A stretch of 64,000 nt of DNA from an uncultured bacterium (GCA_903823865.1 CAIJUJ010000027.1:12065-76064); one strand, 5' to 3'. Positions 11,026 through 62,402 are shown, numbered from the stretch's first letter. Made by a program: numbers and translations. Notes: generated from the letters alone by a model not told the origin.

Positions 11026-11215
11026 AAAATTATTATTAATCTATTAAAAACAAAACGCCCTCGCAAGAACCGAAAAATATTTTCGATTATTGCGAGGGCG
11101 AACGAGTCGCGGTGCCACCTCACTTGCTTCTCATTTATAGGGTTCTACTCACCAAAGGTTTTCTTCCCCAAACTCCACCGTGTTTTCGGCTTCAACGTTA
11201 AAGATATTATATAAT
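11026..11215 (-). promoter_or_regulatory. Candidate T-box riboswitch leader of aspS, compact glyQS-like.
   Basis: The minus-strand leader contains GAGGUGGCACCGCG (plus-strand 11106-11122), a near match to the T-box consensus AGGGUGGNACCGCG. The UGGC bulge predicts pairing to a G73 discriminator, which fits tRNA-Asp or tRNA-Asn. It is followed by an 11-bp terminator hairpin cgccctcgcaa/ttgcgagggcg (11056-11100) plus a U-run directly before the aspS ATG. This is one of the few GC-rich patches in the neighbourhood. Confidence 0.55.
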
Positions 11216-11300
11216 TTAATTGCAAAAAATACACGTTGACATACCAAAAAAGATAATATACAGTTTGAGCAGAAGCAAAATTGACAATACGGAGGCTAAA

Positions 11301-14048: not shown

Positions 14049-14093
14049 GTCCCGTAGCTAACTTTTTCCTGCAAAAAAGTTACGGTACTGGGA
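14049..14093 (+). repeat. 45-nt hairpin repeat, copy 1. Copy 2 is at 53485-53529 in inverted orientation.
   Basis: gtcccgtagctaactttttcctgcaaaaaagttacggtactggga matches the element at the uvrB stop codon at 41 of 45 positions. One stem pair co-varies between copies (g-c versus t-a). Confidence 0.6.
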
Positions 14094-16747: not shown

Positions 16748-17350
16748 TTACTTTTTGAACTCAGCAACCACAACTTGTGCTGGCTTCATAACTCTTCCAT
16801 TTAAAATATAACCTTTCTTCTTAACTTCTGTAATCATCCCGTCTTTTTTTTCATCATCAGTCACAACATGCTCTACCGCAATGTGAAATTTAGGGTCAAA
16901 TTTTTCATTAAGCGGGCTCATTGTTTTAAAATCATTCTCATCAAGGATTTTTAAAAGCTGTGTATGAATATATTCAACACCAACTCTCCAATTTTTATCA
17001 ACTTTCTCCCAAGCTTCTTTATTTGAAAATGCCATTTCAAAACTATCTAGCACCTGTGTGATTTCTTCAAGCAAATTTTCGTTTGCATATTTTACAATTT
17101 CGACTTTTTCATTTTCAACTCTTTTTTTGTAGTTTATAAGGTCAGCTCTTTCTCTCTGCCAGCCATTCATATACTCTTGTTTTTCTTTTTCAAGAGTTTT
17201 GATTTTTTCTTTGAGTTTTTTGACCAAATTTTCAGGAGCTTCAACTTCTTCATCAACTATTACATCATCAGCCATCTTTTTTGATGTTTTTTTTGACTCT
17301 TCTTCGTATACCAAATCATCATTGTTGTTGTTTGTTGTATTTTTGTTCAT
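16748..17350 (-). CDS. grpE: Nucleotide exchange factor GrpE.
   Basis: Coiled-coil N-terminus and GrpE core (MNGWQRERADLINYKKRVENEK...). Confidence 0.85.
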   Translation of the reverse strand: MNKNTTNNNNDDLVYEEESKKTSKKMADDVIVDEEVEAPENLVKKLKEKIKTLEKEKQEYMNGWQRERADLINYKKRVENEKVEIVKYANENLLEEITQVLDSFEMAFSNKEAWEKVDKNWRVGVEYIHTQLLKILDENDFKTMSPLNEKFDPKFHIAVEHVVTDDEKKDGMITEVKKKGYILNGRVMKPAQVVVAEFKK

Positions 17351-17480
17351 TTTTTTTATTTTGGCTTATTCTGGGCTTTAAATTCGATATTAGCCTTATT
17401 TATAGCTATTTTATCATAATTTCAATAAAAATCAAATTTTATGCTTGACAAGTATATAGATAATATGCTAAGATATAAGA

Positions 17481-17610
17481 AGTTAGCAGTGGAAAACACG
17501 GGTGCGCGGGGTAGGACGTCCAAATGTCCCCCATTCACGTTCTATCTCCCACCCGGGTTTCCACTGTTGTCTGCCGTCTTTATAACTTTATTAAGTAAGA
17601 CGGCTTTTTT
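17481..17610 (+). ncRNA. Candidate structured small RNA 1, unknown family.
   Basis: Promoter TTGACA (17445-17450), 18-nt spacer, TAAGAT (17469-17474). A GC-rich body with a long-range stem (cagtggaaaacacgggtg ... cacccgggtttccactg). Intrinsic terminator gccgtctt-N16-aagacggc plus TTTTTT (17573-17610). No ORF. Confidence 0.35.
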
Positions 17611-17661
17611 GTGCCTTTTTTCAATTTGACAACTAATTTTTTATTATTGTATAATTTACTT

Positions 17662-17815
17662 GAGTGCTCCTGCCACCGCACAATGGGGTGACGCCTCCTG
17701 GATGCCGTGAATCGTGGAATGTATTTTTGGAGGCGCTCTCCCAAAATATATTGCCCACCGACATCCCGTCATCATAATATGCCGCCTGAGAATACAGGCG
17801 GCATATACTATTTAT
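17662..17815 (+). ncRNA. Candidate structured small RNA 2, unknown family.
   Basis: Near-consensus promoter TTGACA (17626-17631), 18 nt, extended -10 TGTATAAT (17648-17655). The GC-rich body ends in hairpin atgccgcctg-agaata-caggcggcat (17779-17804). The overlapping ORF (17714-18049) is low complexity and probably spurious. Confidence 0.3.
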
Positions 17816-17842
17816 TATCTACAAATATATAAAATAATTATT

Positions 17843-17868
17843 AAAAAACCGTCTTTCGACGGTTTTTT
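17843..17868. terminator. Bidirectional terminator after rpsI.
   Basis: aaaaaaccgtc-tttcg-acggtttttt. Confidence 0.65.
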
Positions 17869-17877
17869 AAATTATTT

Positions 17878-18327
17878 TTATCTTTTTGACCACTGTGGAG
17901 CTTTTCTAGCCTTTTTAAGACCAAATTTTCTTCTTTCTTTTGCTCTTGGGTCTCTCTTCAAATATCCAACTTTTTTCAAATCTTTTCTTAGCTCAGGATC
18001 CATTAAAATAAGTATTCTAGCGATTCCATGTCTTACAGCTTCTGCTTGAGAATTGATTCCCCCACCTGTAACTTTTACTGTGATCGCCAAATGACCTGGT
18101 AATTTTGCAACATTCAAAGCTTGAGAAACGATAATTCTTTGTGCTTCATTTTTAAAATAATCATCAATAGTTTTTTCGTCATTAATTACAAAAGAATTTT
18201 TTGCAGCAATAGTGGCTCTTACTCTTGCAACAGATGTTTTTCTTCTTCCAACAGCTTCTATGTATTTGTGTTCCCCGACAGAAATTTTACTAACTGTATT
18301 TTTTTCTTTTTTTATTATTGGTTCCAT
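17878..18327 (-). CDS. rpsI: Ribosomal protein S9.
   Basis: C-terminal ...RKFGLKKARKAPQWSKR. Confidence 0.9.
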   Translation of the reverse strand: MEPIIKKEKNTVSKISVGEHKYIEAVGRRKTSVARVRATIAAKNSFVINDEKTIDDYFKNEAQRIIVSQALNVAKLPGHLAITVKVTGGGINSQAEAVRHGIARILILMDPELRKDLKKVGYLKRDPRAKERRKFGLKKARKAPQWSKR

Positions 18328-47701: not shown

Positions 47702-47875
47702 ATTAATATGGAGATAAAATATAACCCCCCCCCGAACCAAAAGTTCGGGGGTAGTTTTTATTTACTCTTCTTTAAAGCTCTTTTTAAATATTTTCCTGTA
47801 TAAGATTTTTCGTTCATGGCTACCCCAGTAGTAGAGCCTCGAACAAGGCTCGGCTCACTACGGGGCGAGAAGTGG

Positions 47876-53384: not shown

Positions 53385-53516
53385 TTATATCATATTTTTC
53401 TTTTTTTCTGCTATCTTTTTGTCTTTAGATTCTATTTTTTCTTTTAAAATTTTAATTTCATCACGAAGTATTGCAGCACTTTCGTCCCAGTACCATAACT
53501 TTGTTTCAGGACAAAG
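53385..53516 (-). pseudogene. In-frame remnant after the uvrB stop, encoding a second copy of the UvrB C-terminal helix.
   Basis: Reading past the uvrB TAA in frame gives ...WYWDESAAILRDEIKILKEKIESKDKKIAEKK-stop. The real uvrB end is ...FESAAILRDEIMILKKRIEDKIKPKETKRSKSRS. There is no start codon. The copies are diverged at DNA level but similar at protein level. Confidence 0.5.
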
Positions 53517-53529
53517 TTAGCTACGGGAC
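53485..53529 (-). repeat. 45-nt hairpin repeat, copy 2. It overlaps and supplies the uvrB stop codon. Copy 1 is at 14049-14093.
   Basis: Minus-strand sequence gtcccgtagctaactttgtcctgaaacaaagttatggtactggga matches copy 1 at 41 of 45 positions. Confidence 0.6.
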
Positions 53530-61973: not shown

Positions 61974-62402
61974 TTATTTTTTTATGACTCCTTTTTGTTG
62001 AAATATTTTTCTTTCTTTCTTTGGTATTCTATACCAAAGATTAGAAAAAACCTTTATTCTTTTGTTTTGCTTCCTGAAATTATCTACTACCTCCTTATAT
62101 AAATAAGAAATGAATTTAACAAAAAAATTTTTCTTATTACTTTTTTCGTACTCCTTCCAATGCTTACGCATTGAAAAAAGTCTTTTGATTCTGCCGTTGT
62201 GGTAAACGGAGTAATCGATTATCTCATCCTTAATCTGAGATAATCTTTTGGAATACAGGTTTTTGTTTATTGTATTATTTTCACCCGCTTTCCAGATTCT
62301 ATATTTACAATAAGAAATTGCATTTTCAGCGTTTTTGTCAAAAATATATTTTGATAAAAACAAAATAAATAATAGTGCAAGACAAACAATTATTATTGAC
62401 AT
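61974..62402 (-). CDS. Hypothetical basic protein with N-terminal TM.
   Basis: ORF only. Confidence 0.35.
   Translation of the reverse strand: MSIIIVCLALLFILFLSKYIFDKNAENAISYCKYRIWKAGENNTINKNLYSKRLSQIKDEIIDYSVYHNGRIKRLFSMRKHWKEYEKSNKKNFFVKFISYLYKEVVDNFRKQNKRIKVFSNLWYRIPKKERKIFQQKGVIKK

Follow-up and report, generated by a model that had tools for sequence, protein, structure and literature searches.

The grpE–rpsI intergenic region

Within the window, that is, the whole 64-kb stretch of DNA that was analyzed, the minus-strand genes grpE (16748-17350) and rpsI (17878-18327) are separated by a gap of 527 nt (17351-17877). An earlier note on this DNA had singled out this gap as unusually long, and on a crude ORF map it does rank second-largest in the window, exceeded only by a tRNA cluster; the spacer between rpsI and grpE is usually shorter than 130 nt in a set of 80 Paceibacteria rpsI loci. 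Among GTDB species genomes, the relatives of RpsI belong without exception to Patescibacteria of the Paceibacterota/Parcubacteria type, and the host genome is that of an AT-rich member of the Patescibacteria. A composition scan recovered the two GC-rich islands that the note had placed on the plus strand of the gap (approximately 17460-17580 and 17640-17790), with a GC content of 45-57% against 17-25% in the flanks of both islands and 32% for the window as a whole. A local GC content similar to that of the gap is reached in the 64-kb window only in the tRNA cluster. We refer to the RNAs predicted from the two islands as RNA1 and RNA2.

Each RNA is preceded by a predicted promoter. The promoter scan, which reported 8 promoter-like sites where 2.8 were expected, placed the RNA1 promoter, TTGACA-18-TAAGAT with an extended −10 element (TGcTAAGAT), at 17445-17474 on the plus strand (10/12 consensus positions, predicted start at approximately 17481), back to back with a minus-strand grpE promoter, TTGATT-16-TGnTAAAAT, at 17408-17435. 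The RNA2 promoter (TTGACA-18-TATAAT, 17626-17655, plus strand) matches the consensus at 12/12 positions, with a predicted start at approximately 17662. The near-consensus sigma70 promoters that the earlier note had seen before each RNA are thus confirmed, apart from one detail: its “TG” at the RNA2 promoter was not counted as an extended −10 element by the scan because it abuts TATAAT.

Each RNA also closes with a hairpin, as had been claimed. The canonical intrinsic terminator ascribed to RNA1, GCCGUCUU..AAGACGGC followed by U6 (17573-17612, plus strand), is plain in both the sequence and the fold, although a simple terminator scan missed it because its loop measures 16 nt. For RNA2, the terminator scan returned a 12-bp hairpin (17777-17806, plus strand), whose tail is weak and U/A-rich in the window and reads UUUUCUU in relatives. 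A further, bidirectional terminator (17841-17870), reported by the scan on both strands, ends the rpsI operon on the minus strand and would also halt read-through from RNA2. All of the coordinates given in the earlier note proved correct to within a few bases.

Homologous islands in related genomes

The closest relative by RpsI, L001 (CAIKXY010000004.1; 89% RpsI identity), carries an RNA2 of 82% identity, which adjoins grpE and not rpsI; grpE, whose homologues form a graded series in identity, was therefore taken as the anchor for the relatives’ loci. Searches with both RNAs by blastn and nhmmer against the 80 Paceibacteria rpsI loci returned only L001. Metagenome contigs, scanned for the exact patterns of two RNA2 blocks, yielded six true loci, along with twelve chance matches in GC-rich coding DNA. 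A scan of viral sequences gave chance matches only, and phages and plasmids contained no matches to the island. Altogether, seven distinct islands were obtained (the window, L098, which equals L001, L081, L092, L123, L124, and L132), all from genomes with a GrpE at least 89% identical to that of the window. In 7/7, the order is the same: the grpE promoter on the minus strand, the outward promoter, RNA1, its terminator, a TTGACA..TATAAT promoter, RNA2, and its terminator. On its other side, the island is bordered by either rpsI or an HD/PPDK gene pair; it therefore travels with grpE. The layout TTGACA-N13-TATGCTA of the RNA1 promoter is found in six of the seven islands, with L124 showing TGTGCTA at equal spacing, and the RNA2 promoter is 80-98% identical among all seven. 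Each RNA1 allele carries its own, differing terminator hairpin followed by a U run, and in the terminator stem of RNA2, 8 core pairs form in all seven sequences, 6 of these being invariant.

These comparisons also bear on the strand. Folding energies are mixed in this respect, with RNA1 subfamily A favoring the plus strand and subfamily B and RNA2 being about equal on both, and we did not assign the strand from them. Instead, the plus strand was assigned because promoters conserved in all islands lie 6-8 nt before each structure, because it is on the plus strand alone that the hairpins have U-tracts behind them, and because no minus-strand promoter was found upstream of the island by the promoter scan, where the rpsI terminator precedes the island and the grpE promoter follows it. 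Transcription of the island from the minus strand is possible only by read-through.

Outside of this group, both RNAs are absent from the locus in relatives with a GrpE 78-86% identical to that of the window, and the bidirectional promoter block is kept. The sequence CTATTTTATCATAATTTC..AAAAATCAAATTTTATRCTTGACA around the grpE promoter, the conserved anchor of the island, persists in every relative with a GrpE identity of 78% or more. What stands behind this block differs from relative to relative: nothing in L101, a 77-nt gap in L110, a 60-nt stub in L107, GC-rich RNAs unrelated to RNA1 and RNA2 in L085, L087, and L106, and orphan small proteins, which found no match in Pfam or PADLOC, in L090, L104, L003, and L012. 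RNA1 and RNA2 are accessory and lineage specific, with a narrow and patchy distribution confined to one freshwater clade.

The grpE control region deserves mention in its own right. The block ATTAGCCTTATTTATAGCTATTTTATCATAATTTC..AAAAATCAAATTTTAT (17351-17440 of the window, and the same block in L081-L132, L002, L003, and L012) is conserved far beyond the adjoining RNAs, and immediately behind the grpE −10 element, on its downstream side, where an operator of the CIRCE/HrcA type would sit, it holds an inverted repeat, TAGC..GCTA. The repeat does not fit the CIRCE consensus.

In L098 (2365-2510, minus strand), L123 (1354-1502, plus strand), and L132 (3540-3685, minus strand), RNA2 is followed by a third unit with its own promoter, RNA, and terminator, RNA3. 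The window lacks this unit, as do the three remaining islands, all of which have RNA1. RNA3 forms a hairpin in which GGGGGAGGUG pairs with CACCUCCCCC. The former is a strong Shine-Dalgarno (SD)-like tract that is followed, after a 5-nt spacer, by the AUG of a nonconserved ORF of 6-20 codons (MLFV..), and it is complementary to the loop of RNA1 over GGGGGA.

Further features came to light in the same neighborhoods. A dispersed hairpin family, CCCAGTA-N27-29-TACGGG, has three copies in the window (14051-14092, minus strand; 47824-47864 and 53486-53527, plus strand) against 0.01 expected by chance, and 12 of 138 loci hold one (among the copies are L081 3410-3451 and 6940-6981; L085 3500-3541; L104 2392-2433; L106 2599-2638; L123 2197-2237). 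Its base, GUCCC/GGGAC, and an internal loop, AGUA/CUA, are conserved, while the upper stem covaries; it has no Rfam match, and in the window and in L081, one copy lies between dnaK and dnaJ, 18 nt before the start of dnaJ. The family may consist of REP-like elements or regulatory RNA hairpins. Several relatives also carry a second copy of the last ~12 codons of rpsI (..TRKAPQWSKR*) some 100-130 nt downstream of the complete gene (L081 3350-3500; L085 3432-3600; L104 2323-2480; L123 approximately 2100-2200). The two ends differ mostly at synonymous sites and enclose a terminator hairpin and a CCCAGTA..TACGGG copy, and the downstream copy resembles the native rpsI end of the window, where no duplication is present and the terminator directly follows rpsI. 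The arrangement has the look of an insertion that carried a replacement for the gene end with it. Finally, an intergenic segment of the window (11026-11219; local GC content, 0.55) contains a long hairpin, GCCCTCGCAAGAACCG..GATTATTGCGAGGGC, with another GC-rich segment behind it, and may be another structured-RNA or terminator region.

Structure and conservation of RNA1 and RNA2

The body of RNA1, as obtained from its minimum free energy (MFE) fold and z-scores, is a GC-rich hairpin of 92 nt (17481-17572, plus strand), a rod whose bulges measure only 1-2 nt. Followed by the terminator hairpin, it corresponds to the long-range stem closing a GC-rich core that the earlier note had described. With its terminator (17481-17612), RNA1, which measures ~95 nt plus terminator, folds at −60.8 kcal/mol (z = −8.6; none of 200 shuffles was as good), and in all seven alleles it is a hairpin of 70-95 nt with z-scores from −3.6 to −9.5.

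The only sequence of RNA1 that can be aligned and is conserved is its tip, AAUG[UCCCC]CAUU (17523-17535, plus strand; pentaloop, 17527-17531), which stands out as invariant alignment columns; L124 differs, with a CCCC loop and a changed closing stem. A C-rich apical loop is present in all RNA1 alleles, as UCCCC in five MFE folds, as CCCC in L124, and, in L092, in the centroid fold only. Stable examples of TCCCC in a 5-nt loop at the tip of a long hairpin were found nowhere in 950 kb of scanned sequence except at the RNA1 loci. The ORFs that start at the AUG of the tip run for 9 to 34 codons and have unrelated sequences in the seven islands, and conservation therefore acts at the level of the RNA.

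The arms, in contrast, are 38-77% identical between alleles, which is near random for many pairs, whereas the same comparisons give 88-98% for grpE, 85-93% for the shared promoter region, and 72-98% for RNA2. Since MAFFT misaligns the arms across all alleles, covariation was read from two subfamily alignments of three sequences each. Among the window, L081, and L123, 9 of 35 pairs are changed on both sides and still paired, and the same holds for 6/22 pairs among L098, L092, and L132. Two further loci show mixed combinations, L093 joining the RNA1 of L092 to the RNA2 of L081 and L084 the GrpE of L081 to the RNA1 of L132; RNA1 alleles are thus shuffled between strains by recombination. The divergence of the arms, far beyond that of the flanking DNA, exceeds what a pure scaffold would need and hints at an additional selective force. 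The extreme allelic diversity of the stem behind a conserved promoter is a useful population-genomic marker and may point to selection.

For RNA2, the alignment, RNAalifold, pair counts, and a covariance model (R1) describe a body (17662-17776, plus strand) composed of a 5′ tail, two hairpins, P1 and P2, and a 3′ linker. P1 (17671-17697) exposes the conserved loop GCACAAUGG, a 9-nt element with the consensus GCACAAU(U/G)G, and P2 (17700-17766) is a long interrupted hairpin with the closing stem GGAUGcCG..CGaCAUCC. RNA2, in which several G/C stems had been noted earlier, measures ~125 nt plus terminator; with the terminator (17662-17815), it folds at −57.7 kcal/mol with z = −4.6. The RNAalifold consensus of the seven sequences, which are 72-98% identical, comprises 39 pairs in total, and 97.4% of the cells in it are paired, against 38-46% when the partners are slid by 1-3 columns. 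Three pairs are changed on both sides (e.g., A-U to G-C and U-A to G-C), and several positions alternate between G-U and Watson-Crick pairs. The covariation score was matched by 4/500 shuffles and the count of double-changed pairs by 29/500. Coming from seven close sequences of one narrow clade, this covariation is modest, that is, supportive but short of conclusive. A search with R1 across 756 kb of related neighborhoods retrieved only the seven known copies; one other match, in L052, was rejected as a terminator within a coding region.

The earlier note had suggested looking in relatives for homologous islands and for covariation, and both were found: seven distinct islands with promoter, RNA, and terminator and, in both RNAs, compensatory changes that keep pairing, with double-changed pairs in each and the modest signal just described for RNA2. 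A lack of such conservation, or a protein-coding gene in these segments, would have spoken against the RNAs; no conserved ORF is present in either segment.

We then compared the locus with known RNA families. At gathering score, the 4227 families of Rfam matched only four tRNAs in the whole window and nothing in the loci of 13 relatives. With permissive filters (E up to 10, gap only), sub-threshold matches fell on the terminators and none on the bodies of the RNAs; the best of these, frnS, reached 34.8 bits, where its gathering score is 60, and was rejected, as it extends over nothing but the two terminators. ARAGORN likewise found the four tRNAs in the window and no tmRNA, in agreement with the statement of the earlier note that no motifs of tmRNA, RNase P RNA, small SRP RNA, or 6S RNA were recognized by eye. 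The individual hallmarks of these and other classes point in the same direction. Bacterial SRP RNA is characterized by helix 8 (domain IV) with its GNRA tetraloop and conserved symmetric and asymmetric loops; its models gave no match in the window or, at E<10, in the gap, whose sequence contains no GGAA/AGCA motifs. 6S RNA, a rod of ~180 nt, imitates an open promoter by means of a large bubble at its center; no 6S model matched, the 92-nt rod of RNA1 has no such bubble, and RNA2 does not resemble a rod. The tRNA-like domain and tag ORF of tmRNA, and P4 and the conserved regions CR-I to CR-V of RNase P RNA, were equally missing by ARAGORN and Rfam. Riboswitches and cis-acting leaders lie upstream of, and are cotranscribed with, a gene on the same strand; here, each RNA ends in its own terminator, and the next gene, rpsI, is convergent. 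Type I toxin-antitoxin modules combine a conserved small hydrophobic ORF preceded by an SD with a complementary antitoxin RNA; the ORFs of RNA1 (9-34 codons) and RNA3 (6-20 codons) are unconserved, and complementarity between the RNAs is not cognate specific. RNA1 and RNA2 are thus non-coding RNAs outside any described family.

Of the two alternatives left by the earlier note, lineage-specific small RNAs or divergent housekeeping RNAs, the first is favored by the seven islands, the compensatory changes, and the lack of a conserved ORF. The second finds no Rfam match even at E<10, and close relatives have no island or one with unrelated content. Given the missing match and the absence of both RNAs at 78-86% GrpE identity, housekeeping roles are very unlikely.

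Possible functions and related systems

We infer that both RNAs are transcribed and conclude that RNA1 and RNA2 are probably real, autonomous, lineage-specific structured sRNA genes. As for their function, they would most likely be accessory regulators that act in trans. The exposed C-rich loop of RNA1 would serve as a seed or kissing loop, pair with G-rich SD-like tracts (GGGGG/GGGGGA), and so block the initiation of translation; the long stem would be a stable scaffold only, and its sequence would therefore be free to drift or be swapped while pairing holds. In Staphylococcus, RsaE, RNAIII, and most other Rsa RNAs display in their hairpin loops an unpaired UCCC motif, which binds SD regions and keeps the initiation complex from forming (PMC2790875; see also PMC4132741). 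By analogy, pairing of the RNA1 loop with G-rich leaders is a possible mechanism, which we advance tentatively.

Three observations agree with this model. SD use is rare in the genome of the window, where a GGAG/GGGG-type motif precedes 1-2 of 66 genes, and accessory genes at the grpE locus of L003 and L090, as well as the RNA3 unit, carry G-run SD-like leaders. In the window, the only SD-like leader with five G residues (AAAGGGGGUGGUUUGAAUG) belongs to an unannotated minus-strand gene (61974-62402) for a membrane-anchored protein of 142 amino acids with a hydrophobic N terminus. The tip of RNA1 and this leader form the best predicted duplex (−12.9 kcal/mol, with a G/C core of 5-6 bp), which is one candidate among the 66 genes in 64 kb. 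It is tempting to speculate that, where a genome has largely abandoned SD initiation, an RNA with a C-rich loop could act on the small number of genes in which G-rich SD-like leaders persist.

Longer complementarity was sought as well. Antisense matches of at least 11 nt to RNA1 occur nowhere in the window, and those to RNA2 are scattered AT-rich 11-mers only. The complementarity of RNA1 with RNA2 or RNA3 is not allele specific, being no better in cognate than in non-cognate pairs, and a 7-bp match in the window (AAUGGGG/CCCCAUU) was discarded, not being kept in other islands. An arm of RNA1 is antisense to the RVGDRT codons of rpoA in the distant relatives L019 and L072 (17/17 and 16/17 matches); we treated this as chance because the rpoA of the window differs at more than 3 of the 17 positions and the other alleles have no match.

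The absence of a convincing base-pairing target among the genes of the window and the RNAs of the locus would also fit the main alternative to seed pairing, namely, that these are protein-binding or decoy RNAs whose RNA1 tip and RNA2 loop are recognized by a protein such as a KH-type poly-C binder, a nuclease, or a modification enzyme. Conservation confined to AAUG[UCCCC]CAUU on a stem of free sequence is typical of stem-loops recognized by proteins, but none of the genes beside the island, which vary (grpE, rpsI, PPDK, or HD genes), is a candidate partner, and we regard protein recognition as rather unlikely.

The one surprising feature of the locus is the hypervariable, recombining stem of RNA1 with its constant loop. 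A constant C-rich tip on a strain-specific stem, flanks 85-98% identical, and alleles reshuffled as in L093 and L084 form the pattern expected under diversifying or balancing selection, and RNA1 might for this reason be a population-level specificity RNA, that is, an immunity, compatibility, or guide determinant in which the ~30-bp stem would carry the information and a putative partner protein would be encoded elsewhere. We consider this unlikely; if it were true, RNA1 could mark an unrecognized RNA-based defense or recognition system in episymbiotic Patescibacteria.

That the conservation of the promoter block extends far beyond that of any of its cargo, which may be nothing at all, a stub of 60 nt, unrelated RNAs, or orphan proteins, raises the question of whether the RNAs are functionless by-products. 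The outward promoter would then be kept as part of the bidirectional control of grpE, and its cargo would be decaying or would serve as insulating hairpin-terminators that protect the convergent rpsI operon. Decay, however, would destroy pairing rather than maintain it, whereas compensatory changes keep the long helices of both RNAs; moreover, the 13-nt tip of RNA1 is invariant even though the arms of its alleles cannot be aligned, and RNA2 has a perfect promoter of its own. An origin as by-products is accordingly improbable.

It is highly improbable that the island encodes small-peptide mRNAs or a module resembling type I toxin-antitoxin systems, in which RNA1 would specify a peptide that starts with MSPI (AUG UCC CCC AUU) and RNA3 would express MLFV.. 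from behind a strong SD sequestered in its stem, with RNA1 as the antitoxin. An AUG does lie inside the conserved motif of RNA1, and the SD of RNA3, 5 nt before its AUG, is both paired with the 3′ CACCUCCCCC and complementary to the RNA1 loop, but the frames are unconserved and run into terminators, the RNA1 motif lacks synonymous variation and has its AUG within the helix, and RNA3 is missing from four of the seven islands that bear RNA1. We give next to no credence to a housekeeping identity of the RNAs, as divergent SRP, 6S, RNase P, or tmRNA pieces, or to cis elements on the minus strand (an rpsI 3′ UTR or grpE leader), since, although GC-rich islands of AT-rich genomes are often housekeeping RNAs and the hairpins fold on the minus strand too, the covariance models, ARAGORN, the bubble-free rod of RNA1, the absence of both RNAs from the locus in close relatives, the positions of the grpE promoter (downstream) and rpsI terminator (upstream) on the minus strand, and the plus-strand U-tracts all speak against them.

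Trans-acting regulation by stand-alone sRNAs remains our preferred reading. Patescibacteria, or CPR bacteria, are not growable alone and have minimal regulatory gene sets, and a literature search found no study of regulatory sRNAs in them. The locus offers two concrete sRNA candidates, or three with the relatives, that have clear promoters, terminators, and supported structures. They are new candidate families of a familiar kind and overturn nothing established.

How familiar this kind is becomes apparent from three comparisons. The approach of searching AT-rich genomes for GC-rich islands has yielded many Rfam motifs, and the present locus resembles such candidates in the way it was detected: an intergenic region stood out by its length and by a local excess of GC, and a promoter and terminator accompanied it. 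RNA1 and RNA2 differ from the Rfam motifs obtained in this way, as none of the 4227 families matches and they belong to a single narrow clade instead of being spread phylum-wide.

A second likeness is to the UCCC-motif sRNAs of the Firmicutes (RsaE/RoxS, other Rsa RNAs, the hairpins of RNAIII, and LhrC), whose SD-blocking action is known from Staphylococcus and Listeria. Like these, RNA1 is a stand-alone gene of an AT-rich genome with its own sigma70-type promoter and intrinsic terminator (both predicted), and it presents a conserved unpaired C-rich motif in a hairpin loop on helices of variable sequence; a C-rich loop on a stand-alone sRNA, which defines the class, is thus present. There is, however, no homology in sequence or structure (the RsaE model has no match in the gap even at E<10), and RNA1 has one C-rich loop where RsaE and LhrC have two or more. 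It belongs to a Patescibacteria genome in which SD sequences are hardly used, and its stem is far longer than those of the UCCC-motif sRNAs and hypervariable between near-identical strains.

The third likeness is to plasmid antisense or kissing-loop RNAs of the RNAI and CopA type, with which RNA1 shares stable stem-loops, a short recognition loop, and allelic variants that coexist in populations. RNA1 differs from them in having neither a plasmid or phage context nor a complementary transcript at its locus, and above all in its pattern of variation: the loop is constant and the stem is variable, the opposite of what is seen in systems in which specificity resides in the loop.
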